Notes under the pieces: generated by a model
Seen by the model: the letters and a program-made list of their open reading frames with translations, nothing else
Databases searched by the model: none
What the model was told of the DNA's origin: nothing
Part shown: piece by piece, positions 2,831 through 32,900 of the stretch
Layout: each line of letters begins with the position of its first letter
How positions within the stretch are numbered: the stretch's first letter is position 1
Position numbers and translations under genes: made by a program
Source: Candidatus Dojkabacteria bacterium
Lineage (GTDB): Bacteria > Patescibacteriota > Dojkabacteria > J137
Length of the DNA: 64,000 nt
Direction of reading: 5' to 3'
NCBI GenBank assembly: GCA_040006935.1
Contig: JBDTVZ010000001.1
Span: forward strand, 231,772-295,771

Positions 2831-2880
2831 TTTGTCAGAAAAAAGTGAGAAAATGTCAAAATTTGTATTGCAATACATTT
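2831..2880 (+). promoter_or_regulatory. Conserved upstream motif copy 1 (TTGTCA ... AAAATGTCAAAATTTGTATTGCAATACATT), putative promoter/operator of the RHS operon
   Basis: A near-identical ~35-nt motif recurs at 14141..14195. It contains the perfect palindrome TGTATTGCAATACA about 53 nt upstream of the 2933 start codon. Confidence 0.35.
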
Positions 2881-2932
2881 TTTTTATTCCTTTTTTAGGT
2901 TAGAATCCATTAGTAAAAATTTATATACTAAA

Positions 2933-4165
2933 TTGAGATTCTGCATGAATACGAGAATAAATTTAAAAAACCTTATGAAATCACGCAAGCGATTTTTAAT
3001 TTTATTGTTAATAATTGCATTTTTTATTGCAGGTATATTATTTTTAGGTCAAAACAATCCGCAGTTTATTACAAATGAGCAAATAAAAGGCCCAGATGCA
3101 CCAGTAAACCAAAGTGTTAGCGCAGAAGATTTAAATTTAAACTTGGATAAGTCAAGAGTTCTAATGTCTCAGGATGGAAATTCCATGCTAATACTTAAGG
3201 AAATTGATGAAAGAACTTCTTCTTTAACTACAACAACATATAGCCTCACGCTAAATAATAGCAAAGGAGAAATACTCAAAGTAATAGAAGAGAATAACAT
3301 TATAAATTCCAATTTTATTGATAATAATTTTATAGCCTATCAAATTATCGGTGACAATGCAGGAATATATAGATATGATATGTTAAACAATACAAAGCTT
3401 TTAATTCAAGAAACTTCTGACACAGAAGCGTTTAAATACTTTGCCTTTCTAAACTCAGATGAATATTTGCGCATTCAACCAAGAACTGGACAGGTTGGTT
3501 TAGTGAAAATATCTATTGGAGCAGATTTCCCATTAGGAGAGAAAGTGATTCCTACATTAGGAAGTTATTCTTCAACAAGTGCTTATTCTTGGCCAGCAGC
3601 ATCACCAGATAGTAAATATATAACTCTTCTGGATTCAGCTGGAGAAAATGGAACAGAATTAATTGTAACCTTTACTGGTAATCAAAATATCAATAAGCAA
3701 TACTTAAACATACCCATTGGCAACTTCCCTAGCCAATTAGCAAGTAATGACGCACCCATAAGCTGGAGTTCGGATAGCAAAATATTAATATTAGGCTATT
3801 TTGGAATTGCAGTAAATCTTGAGGATAAGTCTATTATTTATAATGCTGGTAGTAACACCTTTGGAATGAAATTATCTCCTGATAATACGTTATTATTAGT
3901 AAATAAAACGGAAGCACCTACAATAGAGAGCTTTGATAACAAACAAGCTTATAATTTACCTCCATATATTTCCGATTTCGGTTGGTTAAGTAATAAGTAT
4001 GCAATTTTAGTAATAGGGCAAAACTTATATTTATATAATATTTCTAATAGTGAACTCACAAAAGTTATCGAAGATATTGCAGATTTCCAGATAGTACATA
4101 CTGATGGGAATGGGAATGCTGTTATAAAAAAAGATTCTACTTTATTAAAAGTTACAACAATATAA
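2933..4165 (+). CDS. Signal-anchored secreted protein with PD40/TolB-like beta-propeller repeats
   Basis: N-terminal hydrophobic segment. Repeated SPDSKYITLL / SSDSKILIL / SPDNTLLL blades. The stop lies 1 nt before the RHS gene start, suggesting translational coupling. Confidence 0.4.
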   Translation: MRFCMNTRINLKNLMKSRKRFLILLLIIAFFIAGILFLGQNNPQFITNEQIKGPDAPVNQSVSAEDLNLNLDKSRVLMSQDGNSMLILKEIDERTSSLTTTTYSLTLNNSKGEILKVIEENNIINSNFIDNNFIAYQIIGDNAGIYRYDMLNNTKLLIQETSDTEAFKYFAFLNSDEYLRIQPRTGQVGLVKISIGADFPLGEKVIPTLGSYSSTSAYSWPAASPDSKYITLLDSAGENGTELIVTFTGNQNINKQYLNIPIGNFPSQLASNDAPISWSSDSKILILGYFGIAVNLEDKSIIYNAGSNTFGMKLSPDNTLLLVNKTEAPTIESFDNKQAYNLPPYISDFGWLSNKYAILVIGQNLYLYNISNSELTKVIEDIADFQIVHTDGNGNAVIKKDSTLLKVTTI

Positions 4166-4166
4166 T

Positions 4167-7100
4167 ATGCTCAAGAAACTACTTATTGTTACATTTTTAT
4201 TTCTATTCTTAACTTCCACAACTGGGAAAGTTGCTGCATTCTCATTCGATCCATTTGATAAATATGGGAAATTTCTACCTTGGCTAACTAATCCATCGTG
4301 GAGAGATAACCAACAAATGGTAATCACTTCTACCCCAAATGGACATCTTTCCAACTTTGGTTATAGAGCAGTTGATTTTGCAAGAAACGGTGGGGACGCA
4401 GCTACGATAGGTATTCCCGTTTTAGCTATTTCTGATGGAGTTGTGGAGAAAGTTGGTAATGATCCTCAAGGATGGGGGAACTATGTAATACTTGATCATC
4501 AGAATGGGTACAAAACAAGATATGCACATTTAGGCCTAGTAGTATTAAATAGTAGTGATGTGGGACATGCGATTAGAAGAGGGCAGGAAATTGGGGAATT
4601 TGGAAATACTGGACGTGTTACTAGTGCAAATTTGGAATTAGAAATGATGAATTCAGCTAATGGTGCAATTGACCCTATTGCAGATGGGAGAGCTTTCCAA
4701 GGATTTATTTCAAATAGTCAAGTGAGTGTATCTTGGCAAAGCCCAATTACTAGCTTTAACCACGATCACGCCTTTGTTAAATCCACAAATGATGTAAGGC
4801 CAAATGATCCCGGGAATCCTTGGGATCCACCTGTTATAGACCCATTAGACAGATATTTACAAAATTATGGATATTTATTCCCAAGTGGAATGGTTGCAGA
4901 ACCTATCAATACTGCATTAGGATCTTTTTTACATAGAAGCAATGATTTAGAATTTAATAATCCTTCTGGACCAGAATTTAAATTTGAGAGAGTTTCTAAT
5001 TCTCCAGATCAATTTATAGGATTTAATGGTTTAGGTTGGACAAATACATTCAATATTAAAGTTCTTGCGAACCCAGATAATACTTTCTCTGTGAAATTTG
5101 AAGATGGTAGAGGAGAAAGTTTCAAAGAAGTCGATACTGACCCAAACACATACACAAGAGATTTTCAGAAACTAACTGCAGAAAGTTTAGGAACATTAGT
5201 AAGACTTGATGCAAGTAATAATTATAGATTTCAATATACATCGGGAGATAAAACAATATATCTATTCAATTCGGATAAAGGTTCTTTAGCTTGGGGAAAA
5301 ATTGAAAAAATTACTTCAGTTGATGGAAAATCTATTAATTTTATTTACGATTCAAACGGGAATTTACAAAAAGCATCTGATTCATTTGGAAATTGGATGA
5401 CATTATCTTTTGGGCAAGATAAATTACTAGACACTTTAACAGGTTCTGATGGCTCTGTAATAAATTATTCATATAACTTTGATGGTCGATTAACTTCAGT
5501 TACAAAAAATAACGGTGGTGCATGGACTTACGCATATGATAGTCAAGGACGAATTACAACTATCATAGATGCAGAAGGTAAAACAGTTGTTGCAAAAAAT
5601 ACTTACGATAGTGCAGGAAGAGTAATTGAACAAATAGATGGAAATGGTGGAACAACAAAATTAGAATATACCTCCGACGCTTCCAATAATAAGTCTACAA
5701 AAATTACAGATCCATTAGGAAATGTCACAGTTCAGCTTCATAATGCAAATAACTATTTAACTGAAGAAGATAGAGCAGATGGGACTTCGATTAAGAAAGA
5801 ATACAACGCACAAGGTAAAGTAACAAAAGAAACAAATGAGTCAGCAGTCGCAACATTATATGAGTATGATGCTAATGGCAATACTACAAAGGAAACTCAT
5901 GCTGATGGTTATATAAAAGAAACTAAATATAGCTCACAAAATCTTCCAATAGAAATAAAAGATCCATCTGGAATTATTTCGATGGAATACAATAATGCTG
6001 GAAGAAAAACAAAAGTAACTGATCAGTTAGGTTCTGTATCTACTTATCTATATGATGCAAATAATAATTTAATAAAAGAAATTAATAATAATGGTAATGC
6101 AAAAGTATATGCATACAATGCAAATGGACACTTAGTTGAACAAAGTGATTTTTCAACTTCCTCTGATTTGAAATATGAGTATGATGCTCGAGGAAACCAA
6201 ACTAAAGTAACAGATGCTTTGAATAATGTTTCTACTTTTACATATGACGGAAGGAATCATTTAGTAAAGAGTACAGATAGTAGAGGAAGTGTGAAGACTT
6301 ATGCATACGATAGAAATGGCAACCTTGCATCCGAAACGGACGAAGCTGGTGCTGTCAAAACTTATAGAAGTGATAATAATGAAAATATTGTTGAAATTGC
6401 TTATCCAAGCCAGTACTTACAATATCCTACAAAACAAGTTGGAATATTAAATAATAGCAATACTTTAATTGATGAAAAATTTAATACTAACTTATCAAGG
6501 TGGGATGTTTCAAATAGTAATGTGCAAATTATTGGGAAAACTTTATTAACTAAAAATAAAACAACAGACTCTAAAATATATTCAGTGTGGTTAGAACCAA
6601 AGCTTGATCAAGAGTATTGGTTATCTGCTTTGTATAAAACTGCCAATGCTACTGCTCCTCAATTTAATATTGAAATGTATGATGCAAACTTTAATTTTGT
6701 AAGGAATGCAAAACCACTGGGATTAACTTGGAATGGTGGTACTTTTGACGGTTGGGATAACGAATACCGAAATGCATTCTACTTCCCAGAGGATTTGTGG
6801 AAAGGAAGTCAGGTTTCAATTATCAAATATGCTCGTTTAATTATCACTCTACCGGCTGGAAGTAATGGAACTGAAGGTACAACTATTTTGGATGATATTT
6901 ATTTAGGGCATTTGAATAGACCAATTGCAAAAATTATTAATTACAAAGGAGGTTGGTTAGGTGAGAAAATGATTTTAGATGCAACAGGTAGTTGGGATTT
7001 TGAAACTAATATTAAGAAAGCATATTGGACAGAAATAACTGGACCTGAAGTTTCAATTAATGAGGAATCCAACAAACTTATGAGTAGTTTTGTAATTCCA

Positions 7101-10100
7101 GCGCTGGATAAAGATACTGCATTTACTTTCAGATTAATTGTAGAAGATGGGAATGGAGTTAGAAGTATTGCCAGAACAAAAACCCTTGTTATTAAAAAGA
7201 ATACATTACTCCCAACAGAACTTAATAATGTAAGTAATGAAGTTCAGGATGATTTTATTGATCCGAACGACCCAACTTCACAAATTGATACGAGCTCCCC
7301 ACCAATTCTTGTAAATGTTACAGAGCAATTTGAATACGACAAAAATAATAATCGAATAAAGTATAAAGATAAAAATGGAAATATTACTAGGTATACATAC
7401 AACAATCGAAATGAATTAATTAAAACCGATAGTTATGGAGCAGGAGTTTCAATACTAAGCTCACAAATTTTTGCCTATGATAAAGTTGGAAATATTATTA
7501 AGAAAACTGATTTAACTTCTCCTGGAATTAACCAAGATGGAAACATAACTAGATTTATTTACGATTCTTTAAACAGAATTACAGAAACAATAAATCCTGA
7601 TGGAAAATCTCAAAAAATTAAATATGACATTCTTGGAAGAGTTATCGAAAAAACGGATTTAGAAGGAAATGTAACTAAATACGAATACGATGCATTAGGA
7701 AGAAATACTAAAATGATTGATTCTAGCAATGCAGCTACCATATATAGTTACGATAGAGTAGGCAATATGATAAAAAAAATTGATACTCTTGGAAACGCAA
7801 CTATTTATGCATACGATTCTTCAGGAAGAACTAGTGGGGTAAGAAATGCTATAGGAGATGTTGCTAATTATGTTTACGACTCAGTTGGAAATTTAATTGG
7901 TCAGAGAAATTTTGCAGGAGAATTAACAATTTTATCTTACGATGGGAATAATAATCTAATTGGGCAAACAAATACATTAAATTTAAAAACAAATTTTGAA
8001 TACGATTCTCGAAATAATTTAACAAAAATTACAGATCCAAATGGAGATTATACAACCTATAATTACGATGCAATGGGAAATAAAGTTAGAGAAGTAGATG
8101 CTTTAGGACAACAAAAAAATCTGGTGTACGATAATAATGGAAACCTAATTCAATTTACTGGAGAAAATGGCGAAAGTATTAAGACAAGTTATGATGGCCT
8201 TAATAGAAAAATTGCAGAAGTGGATCAGAAAGGGAATACTGTAAAATATCAATACGATTCACTAGGTAATGTTATAAGCCAGACAGATAAAAATGGGAAT
8301 GGGACAAGTTATAAATACGATAAGAATAGAAACGTAATCGAAATTGTAAATGCACTTGGTGATAGTCAACGAATTGAATATAGTCCAAATGGAAACATTT
8401 TAAAGACTATCGATCCGCTAGGGAATGCTACAACATACAAATATAATAATTTAAATGAAAATATTGAAACAATAAATCCAATTGGTGGATCAATTAAATC
8501 TACTTTTGATTCATTAGGTCGATTGACATCAAAAACGGATTTACAAAATAAAGCTACAACATATGCTTACGATTCATTAGGAAATGTAATAAAAATTACA
8601 GATAGAATAGGGAACGAAACTTCAATTGAGTACGACAAAGTTGGGAAAGTTATAAAAGTAACAAAACCAAATGGGGCAATATCTCAAAGTGAATACGACT
8701 CAATTGGAAGACTTGCAAAAGATATTAATGCGGAAAATGGAGTTACAACTTACGGTTACGACAGTGCTTCAAACTTAATCTCTACAACATTGCCAAATAA
8801 TATTACAACTAGCTTTGGATATGATTCATTAAATAGAAAAGTCCATGAAAGTGTTGCAGGAGTTTCTAAGAGTAGTGAGTACGATTCAATTGGAAGACTT
8901 ATTAAAAGTATAGATGCTAATGGGAATCAAACTAGTTATCAATATGATTCCGTAAATAATATTGCAAAAGTTACAAATCCAAGAGGCTTTAGTACTAATT
9001 TTGAATACGACAATAATGGAAATTTAACTAAAGTCACAAATGCAAAGGGCACTGCTACAACTTTTGAATATAATGGATTAAATCTTCAAACAAAAACTAC
9101 ACAAGCAGATGGAACAACTCTATCGCAAGTTTATGATAAAGATGGAAGAGTAGTGAAAAGTATTGATCCAAAAGGAAATTCTATAGGGAATTCTTACGAT
9201 GCTCTTGGAAGAATTGTAAGTAATAAAAATCAGTTAGGAAATTCAACAAGTTATGAATTTGATGCAAATGGTAATGTAGTTAAAAAAACTGACGCGGAAG
9301 GTAACCTTACAAAGTATGCATATGATAGTTTAGATAGATTAGTCAAAGTTACAGATGCTTTAAATCACGATACTAACTATGAATATGATAATGTTGGAAA
9401 TTTAACTAAGGAGATTAATGCCAATAATAAATCGACTATAAGAAATTATAATAAATTGAATCAGTTGAAGGAGGAAACAGATCCTCTTGGAAATAAAGTT
9501 AGTTATAGCTACGATTTAGCGGGAGATTTAGTTTCTAAAGTTAAAGCCGATGGAACTGTAGTAGGTTACTCATATGATGCTTTAAATAGATTAAACACTA
9601 TTGGATTTAGTGATTCTAATCAAAATGTAAATTATGAGTATGACAATGCTGGAAATATTACAAAAATACAAAAAGGTAATAGTGTAGTTTCATTTATTTA
9701 TGATGAGAATTCAAATCTAATTTCTGCAACACAAGATGGAAATTCTACAGTTTCTTATAGTTACGATGAACTTAATAACCAGTCTCAAATTAGGTATCCT
9801 AACCAAACAATTGCTGAATTTGACTATACGGCTTTGAATCAAGTCAAAGATTTGAGCATTAAAAAGAATTCTGCAATTTCTACAACTCAATTTGGTTACG
9901 ATGCCAACGGGAATTTAACTTCTCAGGTTAATCCAAATGGGTCCCAAATTTCTAAAGATTATGATAATACAAATAGATTAACTAAAGTTTCTGATATTTC
10001 AATTACTCACGATAGCGAGGGCGTGACAAACACATCTAATATTGCAGAGTTTAATTATAGTTTAGATAAAAACGGAAATAAGTTGAGCGAAGGATTTAAG

Positions 10101-12500
10101 TTAGGCGATGGAGCTGCTGCATTGGTCGGCACAAAAGATTATAACTACGATAGCTTACAAAGATTAACAAAAGCTACTGTAACTCATAATTCAGTCGGAC
10201 AAAATGTTGTTGATTCAATTGAAGAATTTGGCTATGACAATATTGGAAATAGAGTAAATCTCAAAACAACAAATGTGTCATCTCCAGCGGAGTCGAGGGA
10301 TGCGGAATTAAATTATTCTTACAACGATGCAAATCAATTAATTGAAGATTCTGCTAATAATTACTCTTATGATGCAAATGGAAATAGAATTAGCAAAACA
10401 GGTAAAGATGGTAATAAAAGTATTCAATACTCTTACGATCTTGCAGATAACTTAACGAATGTTCAAAGCAATATTAGCGGAAAAAATTATAATATAAGTT
10501 ATAACTACGATGGGTTAAATCGAAGAGTTGAGAAAAGTATTAATAGTACTAATAGCAATTTCTATAGTGATGTCTCTTATATTAAATATGCTTATCTTGG
10601 AAAATCCTTTGATACTATTTCTCAGGATGTAAATGGAACTATTCAAAACTTTTACAGAGCTGGAATTAGTAATATTGAGCCTACTTTAATTGCGAGTGAT
10701 TTAATAAGTCCAGCGGTTAAAGTAACAGATCCTGTTGTGCAAAATGATGAACCAGAAGTGCCAGCTTCGTTCCCAGTGTCATATCCTGGAGATGAGGTTC
10801 CAAGTTCATATCCAGTTTCTTATCCTGATGATTCAGTCACTCCAGAGCAAACTCCTGTTGAAGATACTTCTGTAAATTTAAGCTATTACTTTAGAGATGG
10901 ATTAGATTCTGTTGTGGGTGTTTCGAATAAGAATTCTACTGTAGATTATTTAAACGAATATTCATCTTATGGAAAAATTAAAGACTCTTCTAAATTAGAT
11001 GTGTTTAATTCAAAAACATATTCTGGACAAGATTATGATGTTGAAAGTGAAATGTCTTATTATGGTTCGAGATATTATGATTCTGAAATTGGGAGTTGGA
11101 ATAAAATGGATAGTTATCAAGGAAATACATCTAATCCAAGTTCGAGAAATAAATATGCATTTGTAGAAAATAATCCAGTGAATAGTGTGGATGTGGATGG
11201 ATTTGCTGGCGAACAGATGACAGGTGATCAAGCAATTACTTATCTAAATGATCAAGTAACACAAACAAATACATTTATTAGCCAAGCAGATAAAGCTGCG
11301 GTAGATGGACAGAATAGAATAAACGATATTAATAATAGTTTAGCTACTTTATCTGCAGACGCTACTTCTAAATACTGGTCAGCACACCATGCATTAGAAG
11401 ATGAGTATACATATGTTTTGATGAATGGAGTTGTTGGAAGATTACAAGCTAGAGGCTACTCGTTGAACTATGGTCAGGTTTACAATTATCTTGGCAATAA
11501 AATTACTGAGAAATCGTATATTTATGCTGCCAAACAACAACAATATTACGCCGCTGCGCAGTTGTATGAATCCTCTGTACAAGAGAGAGATTATTTGCAG
11601 AATGATTATCTACCTCAAATTTCATCTGCTAAGATAGAAGCTTTAAAATATATTGATGATACGAATTCATTAAAAAGTGATGTTCAAAATCAAATAGATC
11701 AGATCAAAGCTGATGCTCAAAATAGAGCAAACGCCGCAGAAACTCAGAGAAATATTTCCCTGTTATTTGCAGGTGCGGGGGCAGTTATAGGTGGAACTAT
11801 TTGTGCAGTAGCGACTGCTGGTATTGCAACAGCTGGATGTGTGGCTGGTGGTATAGCATTAGTAGCTGGCGTAGGGTCTGCTGCAAACTCAGAAATAAAT
11901 AGACAAGATGCTATGTATACTGTGAAGACAGGTACATTCATGGACTCTAAAGCTAATTTCTTTAATAATTTAGGATTTGATAAAACAACTTCAAGTTCAC
12001 TAAGTAATGCAATAAATGTTGGTGGGAATGTAGCATTTGTGGTTTCTGGAGTAGCAGCTGTTGCGACAGGTGTAATAGCAGGTGTGGCTTTATTGGCACC
12101 AGTTATAGCTGGTGTAGGAACTACCACTGCTGCTACTGCCGCCACAGAAGCTACCGCAACTGGTGGAACTATCGCCTTAGGATTAGATGAACTAGGAAGT
12201 AGCTTAGATAAATTTGCAGAAGAAGTACAAGCAATCACTTATAAAGCCTTTGTACCCGCAGAGGCGCTTGCTACCTCTGACTGGAAACCCTATGTCTTGG
12301 AGAAATTAGCGGATGTTTCCACTAAGATCAACTTTAATCTAACAGGTATAAATAGTATTATGAATAGTGTTAGTAGAGCATCAGCAGGAATGGGAGGAGC
12401 TACTGATTGGGAATTATTGCAAATATACAATAACCCACAATTCTGGGATAGAGTAACATTTTTTCAGGATGGAGTGATAGTACCAAACCCTTTTAATTAA
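4167..12500 (+). CDS. RHS/YD-repeat polymorphic toxin with signal peptide, degenerate M23 domain, YD repeats, RHS core and glycine-zipper C-terminal toxin domain
   Basis: 2777 aa with an N-terminal signal peptide. LytM-like block at aa ~55-165. Dozens of YxYDxxGN repeats span aa ~330-2190. RHS-associated core (YYGSRYYDSEIGSW...NKYAFVENNPVNSVDVDGF) ends at aa 2346. A distinct 431-aa C-terminal domain follows. Confidence 0.85.
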   Translation: MLKKLLIVTFLFLFLTSTTGKVAAFSFDPFDKYGKFLPWLTNPSWRDNQQMVITSTPNGHLSNFGYRAVDFARNGGDAATIGIPVLAISDGVVEKVGNDPQGWGNYVILDHQNGYKTRYAHLGLVVLNSSDVGHAIRRGQEIGEFGNTGRVTSANLELEMMNSANGAIDPIADGRAFQGFISNSQVSVSWQSPITSFNHDHAFVKSTNDVRPNDPGNPWDPPVIDPLDRYLQNYGYLFPSGMVAEPINTALGSFLHRSNDLEFNNPSGPEFKFERVSNSPDQFIGFNGLGWTNTFNIKVLANPDNTFSVKFEDGRGESFKEVDTDPNTYTRDFQKLTAESLGTLVRLDASNNYRFQYTSGDKTIYLFNSDKGSLAWGKIEKITSVDGKSINFIYDSNGNLQKASDSFGNWMTLSFGQDKLLDTLTGSDGSVINYSYNFDGRLTSVTKNNGGAWTYAYDSQGRITTIIDAEGKTVVAKNTYDSAGRVIEQIDGNGGTTKLEYTSDASNNKSTKITDPLGNVTVQLHNANNYLTEEDRADGTSIKKEYNAQGKVTKETNESAVATLYEYDANGNTTKETHADGYIKETKYSSQNLPIEIKDPSGIISMEYNNAGRKTKVTDQLGSVSTYLYDANNNLIKEINNNGNAKVYAYNANGHLVEQSDFSTSSDLKYEYDARGNQTKVTDALNNVSTFTYDGRNHLVKSTDSRGSVKTYAYDRNGNLASETDEAGAVKTYRSDNNENIVEIAYPSQYLQYPTKQVGILNNSNTLIDEKFNTNLSRWDVSNSNVQIIGKTLLTKNKTTDSKIYSVWLEPKLDQEYWLSALYKTANATAPQFNIEMYDANFNFVRNAKPLGLTWNGGTFDGWDNEYRNAFYFPEDLWKGSQVSIIKYARLIITLPAGSNGTEGTTILDDIYLGHLNRPIAKIINYKGGWLGEKMILDATGSWDFETNIKKAYWTEITGPEVSINEESNKLMSSFVIPALDKDTAFTFRLIVEDGNGVRSIARTKTLVIKKNTLLPTELNNVSNEVQDDFIDPNDPTSQIDTSSPPILVNVTEQFEYDKNNNRIKYKDKNGNITRYTYNNRNELIKTDSYGAGVSILSSQIFAYDKVGNIIKKTDLTSPGINQDGNITRFIYDSLNRITETINPDGKSQKIKYDILGRVIEKTDLEGNVTKYEYDALGRNTKMIDSSNAATIYSYDRVGNMIKKIDTLGNATIYAYDSSGRTSGVRNAIGDVANYVYDSVGNLIGQRNFAGELTILSYDGNNNLIGQTNTLNLKTNFEYDSRNNLTKITDPNGDYTTYNYDAMGNKVREVDALGQQKNLVYDNNGNLIQFTGENGESIKTSYDGLNRKIAEVDQKGNTVKYQYDSLGNVISQTDKNGNGTSYKYDKNRNVIEIVNALGDSQRIEYSPNGNILKTIDPLGNATTYKYNNLNENIETINPIGGSIKSTFDSLGRLTSKTDLQNKATTYAYDSLGNVIKITDRIGNETSIEYDKVGKVIKVTKPNGAISQSEYDSIGRLAKDINAENGVTTYGYDSASNLISTTLPNNITTSFGYDSLNRKVHESVAGVSKSSEYDSIGRLIKSIDANGNQTSYQYDSVNNIAKVTNPRGFSTNFEYDNNGNLTKVTNAKGTATTFEYNGLNLQTKTTQADGTTLSQVYDKDGRVVKSIDPKGNSIGNSYDALGRIVSNKNQLGNSTSYEFDANGNVVKKTDAEGNLTKYAYDSLDRLVKVTDALNHDTNYEYDNVGNLTKEINANNKSTIRNYNKLNQLKEETDPLGNKVSYSYDLAGDLVSKVKADGTVVGYSYDALNRLNTIGFSDSNQNVNYEYDNAGNITKIQKGNSVVSFIYDENSNLISATQDGNSTVSYSYDELNNQSQIRYPNQTIAEFDYTALNQVKDLSIKKNSAISTTQFGYDANGNLTSQVNPNGSQISKDYDNTNRLTKVSDISITHDSEGVTNTSNIAEFNYSLDKNGNKLSEGFKLGDGAAALVGTKDYNYDSLQRLTKATVTHNSVGQNVVDSIEEFGYDNIGNRVNLKTTNVSSPAESRDAELNYSYNDANQLIEDSANNYSYDANGNRISKTGKDGNKSIQYSYDLADNLTNVQSNISGKNYNISYNYDGLNRRVEKSINSTNSNFYSDVSYIKYAYLGKSFDTISQDVNGTIQNFYRAGISNIEPTLIASDLISPAVKVTDPVVQNDEPEVPASFPVSYPGDEVPSSYPVSYPDDSVTPEQTPVEDTSVNLSYYFRDGLDSVVGVSNKNSTVDYLNEYSSYGKIKDSSKLDVFNSKTYSGQDYDVESEMSYYGSRYYDSEIGSWNKMDSYQGNTSNPSSRNKYAFVENNPVNSVDVDGFAGEQMTGDQAITYLNDQVTQTNTFISQADKAAVDGQNRINDINNSLATLSADATSKYWSAHHALEDEYTYVLMNGVVGRLQARGYSLNYGQVYNYLGNKITEKSYIYAAKQQQYYAAAQLYESSVQERDYLQNDYLPQISSAKIEALKYIDDTNSLKSDVQNQIDQIKADAQNRANAAETQRNISLLFAGAGAVIGGTICAVATAGIATAGCVAGGIALVAGVGSAANSEINRQDAMYTVKTGTFMDSKANFFNNLGFDKTTSSSLSNAINVGGNVAFVVSGVAAVATGVIAGVALLAPVIAGVGTTTAATAATEATATGGTIALGLDELGSSLDKFAEEVQAITYKAFVPAEALATSDWKPYVLEKLADVSTKINFNLTGINSIMNSVSRASAGMGGATDWELLQIYNNPQFWDRVTFFQDGVIVPNPFN
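4329..4661 (+). other. Degenerate (probably non-catalytic) LytM/M23 peptidase-like domain within the RHS protein
   Basis: YRAVDF sits where HxxxD is expected. NLELEM sits where HxH is expected. The central YAHL and the glycine-rich core are retained. Confidence 0.5.
6921..7200 (+). other. Ig/PKD-like domain inserted within the YD-repeat region
   Basis: The stretch IAKIINYKGGWLGEKMILDATGSWDFE...TAFTFRLIVEDGNGVRS is non-YD and beta-sandwich-like. Confidence 0.35.
11205..12497 (+). other. C-terminal toxin domain of the RHS protein with two Gly/Ala-rich glycine-zipper hydrophobic segments (putative pore-former)
   Basis: It lies directly after the DVDGF end of the RHS core. Hydrophobic segments: AGAGAVIGGTICAVATAGIATAGCVAGGIALVAGVG and VAFVVSGVAAVATGVIAGVALLAPVIAGVG. 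Confidence 0.5.
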
Positions 12501-12517
12501 ATTTTAACTACTAACTT

Positions 12518-12910
12518 ATGATTATAAAGAGAAAATTTAGCTTAGTAGGATGGAGTCCAACTTTCGGGAGGATTTTATACAGAAGTCCTGGCGATCATAA
12601 AGACACTATTAATCTGGATATTGTATTTATTGACACAAAATATATAAATGCACCTACGCAGTTTGAACTTGAATCCATCAAAGAGGTGACACAATTAGAT
12701 GAAGGTATGAATTTTTTATCAAATAATAAGATAGCGGCTCTGGAACAAGACTTAAAGGTTTTTGAGCTTTCCACTAAGACTCAAAAATTCTATATTGTTG
12801 CCTCATTTATCTCAATGTTTGAAAATAAATTGGAGCTTCTGGAACTACCTTTTGAGAAAGATAAGACATCTATAAAGTCTTACAAGCCAATAGACACTAA
12901 AGGTTTATGA
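12518..12910 (+). CDS. Hypothetical protein, candidate immunity protein for the RHS C-terminal toxin
   Basis: 130 aa, beginning 18 nt after the RHS stop on the same strand. Position is the only evidence. Confidence 0.3.
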   Translation: MIIKRKFSLVGWSPTFGRILYRSPGDHKDTINLDIVFIDTKYINAPTQFELESIKEVTQLDEGMNFLSNNKIAALEQDLKVFELSTKTQKFYIVASFISMFENKLELLELPFEKDKTSIKSYKPIDTKGL

Positions 12911-13048
12911 TTTATTTTCTTTTAGGGTGGCTGCACCAGAACTAATTAAATTTAAAAATTTATGCCTTCTAGAAGAGTTCCTAAAGAACAAAGTATTAGT
13001 GTCGATATCGTTTTACATCACGCATTATATATCCCTTAATATTATTTT

Positions 13049-13669
13049 ATGTTTCTAATTTCAAATTCAGTTACAAAAATAATTTCAATCGTAAGTTCAG
13101 AACCTACGATTCAAATGCCTGTCAGGTTTAGTATTAAATACATAGATAATACTAATTATAATAAACTTCTAATATTCTATATTGAATTTGATGGTAAGTA
13201 CTTAGAATTAGAGTTTAATTATAAAGAAGGTGATTCTCAAGGAATTCTAATTAGTTGTGAGTTGATTAATTATCATGAAAAGTTTCAAATAATTGATGGG
13301 ATTTACACTCTTAGTGAAGATATTTCAAAGGATATACCACTTTTCGATTTAAATAACGGATTTCAAATTGAACCCACAAAAAACCCTTATATAGTAAAGA
13401 AAAGTACTCACGATTTCGGATTAATAAAATACGAGAATGCTATCCAAATTAATTTTTCAACTTCTAAATCTAATAAAAAATTTACTATTGGAGAGAAGAT
13501 CCTCATAGGTTTAGATACAGATAATAATTTAAATGAAATTGTTATACTGAATTTATCCGATATCGAAGAAGATTTAATCAATCTCAAGTTAAGTGATCAA
13601 GAGAATAAAAAGTATGACCTATCTTCTGAAACTTTGAAGTATTTAAAAGAAACAAGGAATTTATCTTAA
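13049..13669 (+). CDS. Hypothetical protein, possible second or orphan immunity protein
   Basis: 206-aa soluble, acidic protein downstream in the same orientation. Confidence 0.25.
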   Translation: MFLISNSVTKIISIVSSEPTIQMPVRFSIKYIDNTNYNKLLIFYIEFDGKYLELEFNYKEGDSQGILISCELINYHEKFQIIDGIYTLSEDISKDIPLFDLNNGFQIEPTKNPYIVKKSTHDFGLIKYENAIQINFSTSKSNKKFTIGEKILIGLDTDNNLNEIVILNLSDIEEDLINLKLSDQENKKYDLSSETLKYLKETRNLS

Positions 13670-13691
13670 TAATATTTATTAAATATTTATA

Positions 13692-14111
13692 ATGTTACTA
13701 AGAAGATTAATTGCACGATATATTGATAACTTTTCAATATTAATAGCTTCCTTTTTACTGGGTTTTGGAGGATTTTTAATTGCTGGGATTATTACACAAT
13801 CTAATAAGATAGCTACTTTAATATTTTTTTGTATTTTTGTAATAGCATTTATTATTGTATACGTTATAGATTTTATTGTTCTACCTAAAAAGACAGGTAG
13901 TACTGTTGGGAAGAGAGTATTAAGATTAAAAATCATCAATGATAATGGTAGTGATTTAAAATATTCACAATTAATTATAAGAGAGATTATTGTACAAGCG
14001 GTTGGTTTTTTTGGAATATTTGGTGTAATTCTTCTACTGATGAGTTATTCAGGACCTCAACATAAGTTATTTTATGACAGTACATTAGATATGAATGTTG
14101 TTAAAAGATAA
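13692..14111 (+). CDS. RDD-family-like small membrane protein
   Basis: Two hydrophobic helices flank TGSTVGKRVLRLKIIND...REIIVQ, which resembles the RDD family. Confidence 0.35.
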   Translation: MLLRRLIARYIDNFSILIASFLLGFGGFLIAGIITQSNKIATLIFFCIFVIAFIIVYVIDFIVLPKKTGSTVGKRVLRLKIINDNGSDLKYSQLIIREIIVQAVGFFGIFGVILLLMSYSGPQHKLFYDSTLDMNVVKR

Positions 14112-14140
14112 ACATAGGAATTTAAGAAAGAAGATGAAAG

Positions 14141-14195
14141 TATAAGTAAATTTTGTCATTCTCTCGTAGAAAATGTCAAAATCTGTATTGCGGTA
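14141..14195 (+). promoter_or_regulatory. Conserved upstream motif copy 2 (TTGTCA ... AAAATGTCAAAATCTGTATTGCGGTACAAT)
   Basis: About 31 of 35 nt identical to 2846..2880, about 60 nt upstream of the 14254 start. Confidence 0.35.
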
Positions 14196-14253
14196 CAATG
14201 TTTTATTATTCATAGCAAGTTATAATATACCAATTATATATTACAAGTAACAA

Positions 14254-14784
14254 ATGAGTGAAGTTAAAGCAATAAAGCAAGGAAATAATGATGACTTGAA
14301 GAAGAGAAAAAATGTAAATAACGTAGCCTATTTGTTTGTTCTTTACGGATTTTTAGGATTTTTTGAGAATCTTCTTTTGGTAGGTCCAACAGCTCACAAA
14401 CCAGAAGTCCTTGTAACATTCATTATCGGATTTATACTTCTTGCTATACCTTACATTATACTTCCCCTAAAGGCGAAACAAACTTTAGATGTTAATTATG
14501 CAAAAGCATTGAAATTTTATTTATTACTAGTCATGGTAATCCCCACAATTGTATTATTTGTTGTATTTCTAATAACACATAACCTTGTAAGTATCCCTTT
14601 TTCTATCTTTGATTTATTGTTTTTTGGACTTTCATTTCAATTCGAAAATAATATTAAGGAGTTTAATCCAAAATTTAAATATTCCTTTAAACAATTTTTG
14701 AAAGTATTTGTTCCATCTGCTCTTTTATTATGTGCTGGATTTACACTGACTTTTATTTCAGGAATACTTAACGCAGTCAAATAG
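14254..14784 (+). CDS. Polytopic membrane protein (4-5 TM), hypothetical
   Basis: Hydrophobicity pattern. It shares the upstream motif with the RHS operon. Confidence 0.4.
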   Translation: MSEVKAIKQGNNDDLKKRKNVNNVAYLFVLYGFLGFFENLLLVGPTAHKPEVLVTFIIGFILLAIPYIILPLKAKQTLDVNYAKALKFYLLLVMVIPTIVLFVVFLITHNLVSIPFSIFDLLFFGLSFQFENNIKEFNPKFKYSFKQFLKVFVPSALLLCAGFTLTFISGILNAVK

Positions 14785-26993: not shown

Positions 26994-29900
26994 TTACTCA
27001 ATCCACCAATCCAACCAAACACTTGCACCTCCACTTAATTCTCGATACTCAACTTTAATGGTGTGAAGACCAGCAGTCATATTTAATGTTGCATCATCTT
27101 CCTCATATCCATGAGGTCCCCAATGATCTATTGCGAGAGTTCCGTCAATCCAGACTCTTACCCCATCATCGCTACCTTCCATAAATGTATATGTGTCTGC
27201 ATCAAAGTAGAATTGTCCCTCATATCGAGCAGAGAAGTTGTTACTACTAATTCCACTGATTGGTGAGTTCGATCCCCAATCATAATCAACATTCGATGTG
27301 TACATAGACATTGTTGGTGTTCCTGTTAATGTTGCATTATTAAAGTATTTTGCACAGAACCTTCCAACGTCCACACAATTTGATGTTTGAGTTTGAGGAA
27401 GTGTCCAAGATAATCCTGCTGTAGCATCTCCTGTTCCATCGTAATATTCCATTTTGATAGCATGAGCTCCTGCTGTTAATGTAACTGTCGAAGAATTCAT
27501 AGTTGTTGTATGCGATGTCCAATTATTTATTTTTTGAACATTATCTACCCATAACCTAACTCCATTATCTGATGTTGTAACGAACGTATAACTTCCAGCA
27601 GTTGGGAAATTAATATTTCCAGTCCATCTTGCAGAGAAATTATTACTATTTACTGATGCATCGGGACTTCCTCCCCACCAGAAATTAGAAATTGTATCTT
27701 CACATCTTGTTAGAACTGGAGAGCCAGTTAAACCTGTATTGTTATAGTATTGCGCAGTAAATGTACAACTCGCATTGACTTTGAATAGAGCAGATTTGCT
27801 TGCTGTTGCTCCGTGTGAATCTGTTGCTATGAATTCTATATTCTGTTGACCAGTCCAGTTTACTGGTGTTGTTATTGTGACAACATTGCTAGCATTGATA
27901 CTTACAGTTAGCGGTCCATTATTTGCATAGCTCCAAGTGATTGGATCTGCAATATCTGGGTCACTTCCATAATTATCTAAATCGAATGTTGTAAAGCTTT
28001 GCCCTAATACGATTGTTTGTCCTGGAATTGTATTTACAACTGGATCATTATTATCAACAGGTTCAAAGTATTGCCATACTGATGCTCCTCCTCCTATTTC
28101 TCTGTACTCACCTTTTACTTGATGAACACCAGCAGATACGTTTATAGTTTTATAATCCTCTTGGTACCCATGTGGACCCCAAGAGTCTATTACTGCTTGA
28201 TTATCTAGCCAAACTCTTACTCCATCATCAGATGCTGTCCCAAATTCATAAGTTTCTCCTGTGAAAGTAAAGTTTCCTCTCCATCTTAACGAAAATGCGT
28301 CATCGTTAGTTATTCCATGTCCAGGACCCCATTGCTGCCAGTCTGCATCCACACCATTTTGTACTGCTACAAATACTGGACTTCCGGATAGAGTAGAATT
28401 ATTGAAATATTCTACACAGTAGAGATCACTTGGAATAGTATTGCAATTCCCTCCGTACTGATACCATACTAAAGCTACGACAGCATCACCCGTCGCTTCG
28501 TAATATTCCACTTTTACACTATGAATTCCTGAAGTCAATGTTATGTCATAATCATTATTTTCCCATGAGTGACTTGTCCAGTTATCAATTCTTAGTGTGT
28601 TATCTACCCAAACCCTAATTCCATTATCTGAGTTTGTATGGAAAGTGTAATTGCCAGCCGCAAAGTTTATATTCCCTTGGTATCTTGCAGAGAAATTATC
28701 TGCATTAACAGATGGATCCGGACTATCACCATCCCACCAGAAGTTTTGAACAAGACTTTCGCACCTTGTAAGAGCTGGGGTTCCAGTTAAGGTTTGATTG
28801 TTAAAGTATTGTGCAGTGAATTGTCCTGCACATGCGTCCACCACATTATTTACTTTGAATAGCGCAGAACTACTTGCAGTAGCAGCGGAACTATCTGTTG
28901 CTGTAAATGTAACCGATTGTTCGCCCACCCAGTTTGCAGGAGTTGCTACTGTAACTATATTGTTTGAATCGATATTTACAGTTAAAGGTCCGTTATTGCT
29001 ATAGCTCCAAGTTATTGAATCTGCAATATCTGGATCTGTGCCATAAGTATCTAAATCAAATGTTGTAAAATTTTGTCCTAGGGTAACTGTCTGGCTTGGG
29101 ATTTGTGTTACTACCGGTGTACTATTTGCAACTGGAACAAAATATTGCTCTATGATTGCATTTCCACCAATTTCTCGGAATTCACCTTTTACTTTGTGAG
29201 TACCAGAATTTACTCTCATAGTCTTAGCAGTTTCCTGATAACCATGAGGTCCCCAGTCATCTATTACTAATTGATTATCTAACCAAATTCTTGCTCCATC
29301 GTCTGAAATTTCATCAAATTTATATGTTCCAGTGTTAAAACTGAAGTTGCCCGTCCACCTTATAGAGAAACTATCATCATTAGTAATTCCATGTCCTGGT
29401 CCCCATTGTCCCCAGTCAGAATCTACCACTCGTTTTGTAGTTACAAATACAGGGCTTCCGGATAAATCAGAGTTATTGAAGAATTCTATACAATATAGAT
29501 TTGTTGGAACTGAATTACAATTTCCTCCATATTGATACCATGTTAAAGATGCTACTGCATCACCTGTTGCTTCGTAATACTCAACTTTTATATTATGAGT
29601 TCCTGCAGATAAAGTGATGTCGTAATCATTGTTTTCCCAAGAGTGACTTGTCCAATTATCAATTCCTAGAGCTCCATCAATCCAAACTCTAATTCCATTG
29701 TCTGAGTTTGTATGGAATGTGTAATTACCAGCAGCAAAGTTTATATTTCCTATCCATCTTGTCGAAAAATTATCTGCATTTACTGTTGCATCAGGACTTG
29801 TTGTTCCCCACCAGAAATTATCGATAACATCTTCACACCTTGTAAGAACCGGTGCATTAGTTAAAGTTTGATTGTTAAAGTATTGTGCAGTGAATTGCCC

Positions 29901-32900
29901 TACGCAAGCATCCGTGCTAACTGTGAAGGTTGCTGTACTATTTGCAGATGCATTTGCAGCATCAGTTAAAGTAAACATTATTGATTGAGATCCTGTCCAG
30001 CCATTTGGAATTGTTATAGTTACAACTTTTTGAGTATCAATATTTACACCCAAAGAACCGTTTCCTGAATATGACCAAGTTAGTGTATCGCCAGCATCTT
30101 GATCGCTTCCATAATTATCCAAATCAAATGTTGTAAAGTTCTGTCCTGTTGAAATTGTCTGACCAGGAATTTGACTTACTGTTGGTGGATTATTTGGCGG
30201 TGTATTAACTGTAAATACTGCCGTCGAACTTGCATTGGCGCTTAAATTATCTGTGGCTTTAAAAGTAATATTCTCCGTTCCAGTCCAATTACTTGGATAG
30301 GTTAGAGTAGCTACATTATTTACAATTGAAATTGAAATATTTGTATTTCCAGAGTAACTCCAAGTTACTGAATCTCCTGCATCCTGATCACTTCCATACG
30401 AACTCAAATTAATTGTTGAGAAATTTTGACCTCTAGTAATAGTTTGATTTGGAAGTTGATTTACAACGGGTGCGTGATTTGCATTTAGTAAATCAATTTG
30501 CAATTTTGCTTTTGCCCCACCTGCATTTTCAAAGTATTCCATTTTAACCTCATGTACGCCTGCTGTAAGAGTTTTAGATCCTGCATATGGAGTCTGACCA
30601 TCTTGATCAATCCATCTATCAACAACTAAAGTACCATCAACCCACAATCGTGTTCCATCATCTGTCCATGTCGTGAAGTTATAATTCCCTCCTGCTGCAA
30701 AGTTTATATTTCCTGTCCAACGAATAGAGAAGTTATCTTGTGGACACTCAATTTGATTTGTAATTGCTACAGGATTTAATGTTCCAGTTACTGAATTACA
30801 ATAGGTAATGAATATTCTTCCTAAGCCGCCTTGTCCACCGCCTCCAGAAGGTCCATTTTGATTTCCACCGTTTCCTCCGAGTGCTGTAGATAAGTTTGAT
30901 CCAAGATTAAAAATACTTCCATGTAGAATTATAGTTCCTGCGGCACCTCCACCTCCACCACCAACGTGGCTTCCAGCATTGTTCCCGCCACTTCCATCCG
31001 CATTAATTTTACCTTGAAGATTAATTACATTAGCATATCCAAATAGAATTCCTCCTCCATTTCCACCATTATTTCCATTTATTGTTGTGATATTTCTTCC
31101 TTGATACCCACCGCTAGCTCCACCACCAGAACCAAATAATACTGAAGATTGATCATTTACACCAATACTTGATCCTCCACCACCTCCACCTGTTCCAACA
31201 TCCGGACTATTCCATGAGTATCCTCCAGTTCCAGTATATCCTAATGCTTGAGAACCACCGTTAGAACCGGCAACCGAAACTCCTCCTCCATTTCCACCAC
31301 CTACTGTACTTCCGGCTAATCCTCCTGGCTGTCCATTTACATTACTATCGGATCCACCTCCGCCTCCACCTCCTGCTGTAGCATTTGCACCACCACCTCC
31401 TCCACCTGTTCCTTCATCACCTTGGCCTGAATTTAAGAAGTCATATCCTCCGGATCCAGCTCCTCCTGATCTTAAACCTGCAGGAGATGTTGCACCATTT
31501 CCAGAACCACTTCCACCTCCGTATGAACCAGTTCCATTTGGAGAATTACCTCCTCTTCCAACAAATCCATCTGTAGACTCACCATTAATCCCTCCTAGAT
31601 TTACTCCCACACCAACTCCTCCTCTGTAACCCTTACCTTTTAGGTCAATTATTCCTAAAGTTCCCACATTTACTGTGCCGTTTGCTTTGAATGCCATAAC
31701 TCCCCCTGTACTTCCATCCCAATTTGCTACAGTGAAGATTCCGTCTATATTAATATTTCTATATTGATTGACTTTTAGAATCTGAGCTACTGAACCACTA
31801 CCCACTGTATAAGTATTATTCAAATTATTTGTTAATGTTAAATTTGTTCCTGAAATACTTGCAACGGTATTGAATTCATACTTTCCCACTCCTGTTCCTA
31901 ACATTTGAATTATTAATATACTATCACCTGCAGTAAATGCACTTGAAGGTGCTCCACTTATAGTAACAATCTTTTGATTTGCAGCAGAAGTCAATGAAAC
32001 TGCACTTCTAACAGTATCTGTATAAACTGTCTGGTTTGTAGAAACACTTAGATCTCCTTCTCTTCCATCTCCTGTTTCGTTTCCTGGAGTTACTAGAGGT
32101 ACTGGACCTCCTCCCGCCCAATCAAAATCAATTGTGTCATCACATGATGTACCTACAGGAGTTCCATTTAACTCTTTATTTGGATAATATTGACCATAAT
32201 ATTGATTAGTTGAACAAGGCCATATTGTAAAGTTTGCACTCTTAGTTGCTTCTGCATGCCAATTGTCAGTTGCTTTAAATGTAATATTTTCTGTACCAGT
32301 CCAATTTGCAGGATAAGTTAAAGTTGCTACGTTATTCGTAATAGAAACTCCAATATTAGAATTACCTGAGTAACTCCAAGTTATTGTGTCTCCACTATCC
32401 TGATCACTTCCATAACTAGCTAAATTTATATTTGTAAAAGCTTCACCTGCTCCAATTCGCTGATCCGGAATAGTTGTTATAACAGGTGCATGGTTATTTG
32501 CTGGTTGAACAAAAAATTGTGCTAATGCATTGCCCGTTGCTTCGTAGTATTCCATTTTTACAGTATGTAAGCCAGCAGTTATAGGAGTAGCTTGAGATAA
32601 GTTAACCCCGGCATTATTTATCCATTTATCTATTAATAAATTAGCGTCAACCCAAAGCTTTGTACCATCATCTGTATTTGTCTGGAATATATATGTATTT
32701 GCAGAGAAATTTATATTTCCTGTCCAACGAATAGAGAAGTGATCTTGAAAACAATCCGTTTGAAGTTGTTTTGTTACCTCTAGTGCAGAGCCTGTTATGG
32801 CATCACAATATTCTATCCTTGTTCTACCACCTCCACCATTTCCACCACCTGCTCCTTGCGAAGGTGTTCCTGGTCCTCCATTCCCGCCATTTACTAATAA

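Follow-up and report, generated by a model that had tools for sequence, protein, structure and literature searches.

What would a secreted Rhs protein of 2777 amino acids (aa) do for a bacterium of the candidate phyla radiation (CPR), and how might it leave the cell and act on another one? This question is raised by a locus of Candidatus Dojkabacteria bacterium that we analysed within a 64,000-nucleotide (nt) stretch of its genome (GCA_040006935.1, contig JBDTVZ010000001.1, positions 231,772 to 295,771 of the forward strand; herein referred to as the window, with positions counted from its first letter). Dojkabacteria, earlier named candidate division WS6, are members of the CPR (Patescibacteria). 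The Rhs polymorphic toxin gene (4167..12500, plus strand, MEP7103290.1) had been singled out by an original prediction, which read its product as a glycine-zipper toxin directed at the cell wall and exported by an undefined route. We find that the last ~110 aa of the protein are a member of a widespread, unannotated polymorphic-toxin family and that the gene directly downstream is the cognate immunity gene of this terminal domain; the locus as a whole is likely to be of the WapA type, that is, a Sec-exported and wall-associated Rhs polymorphic toxin locus.

The terminal toxin domain (12168..12500, plus strand, aa ~2668-2777) carries the motif ALGL..LD.FA...T.K...W...FNL.G...R...GGATDWELLQI..NP..W...G..VPNPF. 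A word-indexed search with the whole 431-aa C-terminal region of the protein returned a single match, the C-terminus of another Rhs protein (P0001), with 47% identity over the last ~110 residues. The family itself emerged from a two-sequence profile run against 1.84 billion cluster representatives, which retrieved 384 proteins at a threshold of E ≤ 1e-3, of which 179 also pass E ≤ 1e-10; these 384 representatives stand for 50%-identity clusters and come from at least 8 phyla, and nearly all of the 150 matches listed extend into the final residues of the carrier. Among the carriers are RHS proteins (such as P0115, with transglutaminase, DUF6531 and RHS domains), SpvB/FG-GAP/TcdB_midN (TcB/C-like) proteins, PT-HINT proteins and PT-TG pre-toxin proteins, most of which, when full-length, start with a signal peptide or lipobox. 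Conservation among 135 sequences reaches at least 95% at G2672, L2680, F2683, N2724, L2725, T2746, W2748, E2749, L2750, P2775 and F2776. Species representatives of GTDB that encode the domain include Paenibacillus, Lachnospiraceae, Comamonas, Polaromonas and Methylovulum, and further lineages are Myxococcota, Planctomycetota, Actinomycetota, Verrucomicrobiota, Acidobacteriota and Dormiibacterota; the scan of these representatives found no other CPR genome with the domain. No Pfam model matches the domain of the window or recurs among 36 members of the family, even at E ≤ 10; comparison with PDB sequences gave no match beyond chance, and NCBIfam models, run on the window's own proteins, matched neither the toxin domain nor the immunity protein. 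A survey of polymorphic toxins (PMC3482391) does not mention M23, LytM, TIR or glycine zipper, and the motif strings yielded nothing relevant in the supplements of PMC13018210 or in the other papers searched.

The immunity gene (12518..12910, plus strand, MEP7103291.1) encodes a protein of 130 aa, and its assignment follows the toxin domain across genomes. On the metagenome contig from which P0001 derives (L001), an uncalled open reading frame (ORF) of 124 aa begins 16 nt past the toxin stop and is homologous to the window gene (26% identity, pairwise E 2e-11). With a two-sequence hidden Markov model (HMM), a same-strand immunity homologue was then located in 45 of 47 genome loci, where the toxin match ends or shortly past it and within a few tens of nt of the toxin stop, for most with E between 1e-16 and 1e-36; rebuilt from genome loci only, the HMM scores the window gene at E 2.3e-20 and detects no second immunity copy in the window. 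The original prediction had pointed to two small ORFs in the position of immunity genes, and the first of these is now identified as such, but the same strand carries four ORFs downstream (130, 206, 139 and 176 aa) rather than two. The immunity protein has no match in Pfam, no signal peptide and no transmembrane segment. It is thus cytosolic, which speaks for a cytoplasmic target of the toxin and not for the cell wall that the original prediction had named.

Two side observations concern the distribution of this pair. The immunity ORF of L001 lies at 1638-2012 (ENA ERZ27256021 k141_1214363, the same sequence as L012, Candidatus Dormiibacterota), where the source annotation missed it and called a likely spurious 361-aa ORF further downstream. 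In Methylovulum psychrotolerans Sph1 (L033, 4001-8046) and in L043 (4083-4830), only a C-terminal toxin-domain fragment is present, together with 2-3 copies of the immunity gene, and in L033 the fragment and the copies sit among overlapping ORFs of both strands; such loci resemble an array of orphan toxin/immunity cassettes. A C-terminal domain of the same Sph1 strain, not necessarily this toxin domain, is listed as 'nuclease' by fold prediction in PMC13018210.

An AlphaFold2 model of the toxin domain, built with a 36-sequence alignment, has an alpha/beta topology (predicted local distance difference test, pLDDT, 90.6; predicted template modelling score, pTM, 0.84) and a fold weakly similar to that of TIR and SEFIR domains. 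Folds of the TIR, SEFIR and deoxyribosyltransferase type share N-glycosidic-bond chemistry on nicotinamide adenine dinucleotide (NAD) or nucleotides, with a catalytic Glu. TIR/SEFIR (STIR) domains and CD38-like and N-deoxyribosyltransferase-fold toxins (PMC12605009, PMC12356396) resemble the domain in its predicted three-layer alpha/beta fold and in an invariant Glu on a helix after a conserved Trp, here Glu2749 within the motif T-D-W-E-L-L-Q-I. Because of the weak TIR/SEFIR/deoxyribosyltransferase-like fold match and of invariant Glu2749, our best guess, a tentative one, is that the terminal domain might be an NAD(P)+ or nucleotide glycohydrolase.

Beyond the Rhs core, the C-terminal region starts with its pre-toxin part (11205..12167, plus strand, aa 2347-2667), in which hydropathy distinguishes ~180 hydrophilic residues and, after them, three hydrophobic windows rich in Gly and Ala, at aa 2529-2574, 2614-2634 and 2636-2659, the second adjoining the third. 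No homologue of aa 2347-2667 was found in any sequence search, and the whole 431-aa region gave nothing meaningful against Pfam (E ≤ 10) or PDB sequences. In the toxin family, the linkers from core to toxin domain are mostly 70-280 aa long and contain hydrophobic segments in about half of the carriers examined, which suggests that a membrane-active pre-toxin region of variable sequence recurs in the family; we propose for this part a role in membrane insertion or translocation.

The alternative that survives best starts from these same segments. It holds that the glycine-zipper part is itself the toxic principle, a membrane-depolarising pore former like Tse5, EsxX and the ionophore toxins of contact-dependent inhibition (CDI), possibly acting alongside the terminal enzyme domain, and that immunity resides in two downstream genes, an RDD-family membrane protein (13692..14111, plus strand, 139 aa; Pfam RDD E 1.8e-17) and the multi-pass membrane protein ORF176 (14254..14784, plus strand, 176 aa, without a family). 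Indeed, the stretches at aa 2529-2574 and 2614-2659 are hydrophobic, Gly/Ala-rich and GxxxG-spaced, both downstream genes encode multi-pass membrane proteins on the same strand, comparable Rhs and LXG toxins are known (PMC9637101, PMC10684867, PMC12744356, PMC11630599), and a teneurin-like protein of Bacillus has a hydrophobic C-terminal domain that, when exported, makes Escherichia coli permeable (PMC13018210). However, the hydrophobic region has no homologue in our searches, conservation and immunity linkage are confined to the terminal domain, and neither the RDD protein nor ORF176 occurs in any other locus of the toxin family; ORF176 may moreover belong to a separate transcription unit, because it has its own copy of an upstream element described below. 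The known glycine-zipper pore formers of Rhs, LXG and CDI systems (PMC9637101, PMC10684867, PMC12744356, PMC11630599) do share Gly-rich hydrophobic C-terminal segments and putative membrane insertion with the present protein, but here a separate conserved globular domain and a cytosolic immunity protein follow, there is no sequence similarity, and the delivery handles of type VI secretion (T6SS), type VII secretion (T7SS) and CDI are absent. We therefore regard the pore former as unlikely, and of the glycine-zipper toxin of the original prediction we retain the Gly/Ala-rich stretches, whereas the conserved, immunity-linked unit is the terminal ~110 aa.

The protein as a whole is an intact Rhs protein. 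The ORF runs without interruption from 4167 to 12500, and since the DNA repeats within it are only 61-80% identical, neither repeat collapse nor chimerism is indicated and we see no basis for suspecting an assembly chimera, a possibility that the original prediction had raised against itself along with a failure of Rhs models to match. Both models do match: RHS_repeat (PF05593, Pfam) at E 9e-203 over 26 stretches and Rhs_assc_core (TIGR03696, NCBIfam) over aa 2265-2345 with 53.7 bits against a cutoff of 32.5; YD_repeat_2x (TIGR01643, NCBIfam) adds E 6.5e-144. The shell is preceded by a DUF6531 domain (4899..5123, plus strand, aa 245-319; Pfam E 2.3e-07 on a sub-fragment, over the gathering score), a domain that commonly precedes Rhs shells and acts as a plug region. 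From the Pfam and NCBIfam matches and the positions of YD motifs (aa ~392-730 and ~1055-2260), the repeats form two blocks on the plus strand, block 1 at 5154..6401 (aa ~330-745) and block 2 at 7317..10958 (aa ~1051-2264), which are separated by a ~300-aa insert devoid of YD motifs (6402..7316, plus strand, aa ~746-1050). This insert consists of ~170 aa without a match, then a K319L-like PKD/Ig domain (K319L-like_PKD, E 6.4e-05, under the gathering score) and a linker rich in Pro, Asp and Ser; it has no match among PDB sequences.

The Rhs-associated core (10959..11204, plus strand, aa 2265-2346; TIGR03696) ends in DVDGF at aa 2342-2346, and the 431-aa C-terminal region remains beyond it. Aligned with 12 carriers of the family, the core reads ...GSRYYDSEIGSWNKMDSYQG...NNPVNSVDVDGF|AGE, in which both Asp of the bipartite autoprotease motif DPxG...DPxGL are kept (D2315 and D2342) and the prolines that follow them are both replaced. 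From this alignment, cleavage of the core is predicted after F2346, which would free the C-terminal region.

Could the protein be an adhesin in the first place? Teneurin-like proteins are discussed as proteins of cell-cell interaction (PMC13018210), and an epibiotic CPR cell might use a giant surface-exposed protein mainly for attachment to its host in a teneurin-like role, with the LytM domain and the shell insert binding the host surface and the toxin module secondary or vestigial. The putative wall-binding domain, the PKD/Ig-type insert and a second giant surface protein in the same window (S8, M23 and 8 PA14 stretches) fit this account. Against it, the core aspartates, the residues of the toxin motif and the immunity gene are all intact, with good family matches, and therefore a functional toxin-immunity pair is favoured; we consider a chiefly adhesive role improbable.

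The N-terminus bears on both export and attachment. By inspection of the translation, aa 1-24 (4167..4238, plus strand) look like a Sec signal peptide of the signal peptidase I (SPI) type, since MLKKLLIVTFLFLFLTSTTGKVAA|FS has the n/h/c layout of such peptides, with a KK n-region, an 11-residue hydrophobic core and a predicted cleavage site at VAA|FS. There follows a degenerate LytM/M23 domain (4347..4676, plus strand, aa ~61-170), which Peptidase_M23 of Pfam matches at aa 78-169 with E 1.4e-17. The HxxxD motif has become Y66-R-A-V-D70 and the HxH motif N155-L-E157, and only H121 of the YAHL motif is kept beside D70; two of the three Zn ligands (at Y66 and E157) and one catalytic His (at N155) are thereby lost, which we take to correspond to H210, H293 and H291 in the numbering of Staphylococcus aureus LytM. 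With these residues gone, the domain should not be a peptidase. Degenerate LytM (dLytM) factors such as EnvC, NlpD, ActS and DipM keep the M23 fold with lost Zn ligands and have turned from hydrolysis to binding and regulation; they are stand-alone division or amidase-activator proteins, whereas the present domain is part of an Rhs toxin. By analogy with them, the degenerate M23 domain would most likely be a wall-binding module and not a lytic warhead. That it is instead an active peptidoglycan endopeptidase, and the protein a lytic toxin aimed at the cell wall as originally predicted, is highly improbable: the Pfam match and the NCBI name 'peptidoglycan DD-metalloendopeptidase family protein' speak for it, but 9 of 9 ordinary M23 relatives aligned with the domain have HxxxD and HxH, with the His residues that Y66, N155 and E157 replace here, the scores of NCBIfam models for endopeptidases and activators (ShyA, DipM, ActS) on the Rhs protein are far under their cutoffs, and the immunity protein is cytosolic. 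The public name of MEP7103290.1, derived from the degenerate domain of 90 aa, is accordingly misleading and needs correction.

The gene upstream of the Rhs gene is an orphan. This partner (2975..4165, plus strand, MEP7103289.1) encodes 396 aa from the NCBI start, with in-frame alternatives at 2933 (TTG) and 2945 (ATG); its stop (TAA) ends at 4165 and the Rhs ATG stands at 4167, leaving one base between them. The original prediction had described a translationally coupled PD40 beta-propeller gene in a locus starting at 2831; the 1-nt spacing is as it stated, but the earliest possible start of the gene is 2933, and PD40 lacks HMM support even at E ≤ 10, the protein having no match in Pfam at that threshold or among PDB sequences. 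Motifs like those of PD40 blades (SPD[SN]- and SxDG-like) can be picked out by eye (ASPDSKYITLL, SWSSDSKILIL, MSQDGNSMLIL), which makes a PD40 beta-propeller reasonable but unverified. The N-terminus is basic and continues with ~20 hydrophobic residues and no obvious cleavage site, and looks like a signal anchor; a single-sequence AlphaFold2 model, unreliable at pLDDT 39, has a transmembrane helix and ~25 strands, so that the region past the anchor is apparently all-beta and extracytoplasmic. Among 5.8 billion proteins the only homologue is the partner itself, 100% identical to NCBI 'MAG: hypothetical protein ABI721_01095 [Candidatus Dojkabacteria bacterium]' on a contig of 516,739 bp. Its position invites comparison with Streptococcus suis wapA, where export depends on a SecF-like gene and SrtB located directly upstream (PMC12704120), and by this analogy we infer that the partner may act in export or assembly.

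Taken with the N-terminus and the shell, these features place the locus near several known systems. The WapA class of monoderm bacteria is defined by a signal peptide, a wall-binding module, an Rhs shell and a toxin-immunity pair; in WapA the wall is bound through a LysM region, and accessory genes lie upstream (PMC12704120). Like WapA of Bacillus subtilis and of S. suis (PMC12704120), the present protein is predicted to combine an N-terminal Sec signal peptide with a peptidoglycan-associated module, and it shares with them the YD/Rhs shell, the Rhs core, a polymorphic C-terminal toxin, an immunity gene directly 3' and an accessory gene directly upstream, which is SecF-like plus SrtB in S. suis and an orphan, apparently all-beta membrane protein here. 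It departs from the WapA type in that the wall module is a degenerate LytM/M23 domain and not LysM or WapA wall-binding repeats, that the shell contains a ~300-aa non-YD insert, that the C-terminal region measures 431 aa and has a long hydrophobic pre-toxin part, and that the organism is a CPR bacterium.

Teneurin-like proteins of Gram-positive bacteria are likewise exported by Sec/SPI and carry wall-binding domains, and their YD shell encloses a cleaved toxic C-terminal domain, hydrophobic in some cases and averaging ~15 kDa, with associated immunity genes (PMC13018210); their defining FN-plug and NHL domains were, however, not detected here by Pfam, and TEN_YD-shell scores 34.8 bits on the Rhs protein, under its cutoff of 50. 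Within the CPR, an RHS/YD protein of 2487 aa is encoded next to an immunity gene in a rhizosphere Saccharibacteria genome (PMC6031116); compared by description only, it is likewise a giant secreted protein with extra domains of carbohydrate-binding type; these are reported as PA14 and galactose-binding domains, not M23. Because WapA, teneurin-like and Saccharibacteria Rhs proteins are known, the locus does not fall outside known delivery classes, and the unusual export route that the original prediction had proposed dissolves into the WapA/teneurin-like class of signal peptide, wall-binding module and Rhs shell (PMC12704120, PMC13018210, PMC6031116).

In agreement with the original prediction, which had noted no LXG, PAAR or VgrG, the Pfam and NCBIfam scans found none of the T6SS, T7SS or CDI handles (PAAR, VgrG, LXG, TPS/FHA) in the Rhs protein, and no T6SS or T7SS components are encoded in the 64-kb window. 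Features of Tc toxins (SpvB, TcdB_mid, an FG-GAP propeller, a TcA partner) were found neither in the Rhs protein nor in its neighbours. The beta-propeller of TcB comes after roughly the first 400 residues of the shell, and the insert of the present shell occupies a comparable position. What is new here is the fusion to a degenerate LytM domain, the split shell with its insert, the orphan partner, a C-terminal region of unusual length whose hydrophobic pre-toxin part is unique, and a toxin-immunity family that no annotation covers. As an architecture, the locus does not found a new category, and the activity of the toxin is one that we infer. The outline of signal peptide, M23/LytM domain, YD shell, core ending in DVDGF and 431-aa C-terminal region, as first drawn in the original prediction, agrees with Pfam, NCBIfam and the translation.

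We hypothesize that the protein of this WapA-type locus would be exported by Sec, with its signal peptide cut after VAA, and tethered by the inactive LytM domain to peptidoglycan, either of the producer's own wall, as in WapA, or of the target. The YD shell would enclose the C-terminal region, which the core would cut after DVDGF and which contact with a neighbouring cell would release. The helical and Gly/Ala-rich hydrophobic part could then enter the target membrane and deliver the terminal domain to the cytoplasm, where it would act as an enzyme, at best guess an NAD(P)+ or nucleotide N-glycosidase, from which the immunity protein would protect sibling cells. The membrane-anchored partner may aid export or assembly, as do the accessory genes upstream of S. 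suis wapA.

Several points weigh against this scheme. The biochemical activity of the terminal domain is a guess: Foldseek of the model against PDB gave nothing at E < 0.1 (best SEFIR and TIR-STING, with template modelling scores of ~0.5), no sequence-level link to TIR or another Pfam family was found and no HMM matches, and the domain is ~105 aa long as against ~140 for TIR. Moreover, when set against the TIR alphaC motif, which we take to be S-x-W-C-x-x-E-L, the canonical catalytic Glu position presumably corresponds to Gln2752 and not to the invariant E2749. That the degenerate LytM domain would bind peptidoglycan is an assumption modelled on other dLytM proteins. The 80 proteins closest to the N-terminal 378 aa are ordinary short M23 proteins, none of them an M23-RHS fusion, and the N-terminal 418 aa had no relative in a metagenome scan; as no relative has the M23-Rhs fusion or the partner gene, the architecture lacks comparative support. 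Enclosure by the shell is putative, and the cargo of 431 residues would be some three times as large as the C-terminal domains of teneurin-like proteins, for which ~15 kDa is typical (PMC13018210). The target, finally, may be kin, a competitor or a host.

One bold version of the hypothesis is that a CPR epibiont intoxicates or manipulates its bacterial host, and not its kin, by means of a Sec-exported Rhs cocoon with an inactive-LytM tether, an orphan membrane-anchored partner and its own translocation module, whose warhead is the founding member of a new and widespread enzymatic toxin-immunity family with a TIR/SEFIR-related fold. We hold this combination to be a long shot. The genome fits the AT-rich setting that the original prediction had described, with ~33% GC in the window, and the organism is of the CPR, in line with the possibly epibiotic life it had suggested. 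Antagonism, host attachment and competition in ultra-small CPR bacteria are largely obscure, and a complete toxin-immunity locus that depends on Sec only is a concrete candidate in this context, a plausible weapon of antagonism or host interaction for which Sec would be sufficient. Beyond the CPR, defining the toxin-immunity pair would better annotate many Rhs, Tc-like and HINT toxins and would offer a new enzyme to characterise.

The partner, the Rhs gene and the four ORFs that follow form a single gene row on the plus strand, and their proteins are deposited consecutively at NCBI (MEP7103289-MEP7103294). The flanking genes are ordinary chromosomal ones (Ldh_2, patatin, ROK kinase, ABC transporters and a P-type ATPase). 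ORF206 (13049..13669, plus strand, 206 aa, cytosolic) directly follows the immunity gene, is a singleton cluster, has an unusually low GC content (0.254) and matches DUF2283 weakly (E 0.003, under cutoff); it might serve against another type of toxin as an orphan immunity gene, or be unrelated. ORF206, the RDD protein and ORF176 were considered as family-linked immunity genes and rejected, none of them recurring in other toxin loci.

An upstream element occurs in two copies along the row, one at 2848..2884 (plus strand), ~90 nt 5' of the partner start, and one at 14168..14204 (plus strand), 50 nt 5' of the ORF at 14254. Their 24-nt core, AGAAAATGTCAAAATYTGTATTGC, is identical in both copies save the Y, and copy 1 has the perfect palindrome TGTATTGCAATACA; similarity reaches ~60 nt (extended about 2830-2900 and 14140-14215), and a TAGAAT/TATAAT-like box comes after each copy. 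With two copies in the window against none expected by chance, the element is probably a shared operator or promoter element, and because it is common to ORF176 and the partner-Rhs unit, the two may be co-regulated. The 37-nt repeats were also considered as boundaries of a genomic island, which seems less likely since an integrase is absent and each copy, with its -10-like box, stands just 5' of where a gene starts. A general promoter and terminator scan gave fewer matches in this AT-rich DNA than in shuffled sequence and was uninformative.

The protein collection that we searched files the Rhs protein under an unrelated 52-aa JGI peptide (P0233) as cluster representative, and therefore its self-match is missing and the protein is hidden from homology searches; the contig of that peptide (L049) is irrelevant to the Rhs locus. 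The second giant ORF of the window (26994-37973, minus strand, 3659 aa), whose exact sequence is absent from the collection, encodes a fervidolysin-type prodomain, an S8 subtilase, M23, PKD and Big_9 domains and 8 PA14 stretches, and in its M23 domain the histidine of HxxxD is also gone (NGAND) and HxH is kept (HAH). A 563-aa ORF at 61-1752 ends close after a carboxypeptidase-regulatory-like domain (E 9e-16) and, judged from this domain content, may be another surface protein, which would enlarge the surface-protein cluster of the window.

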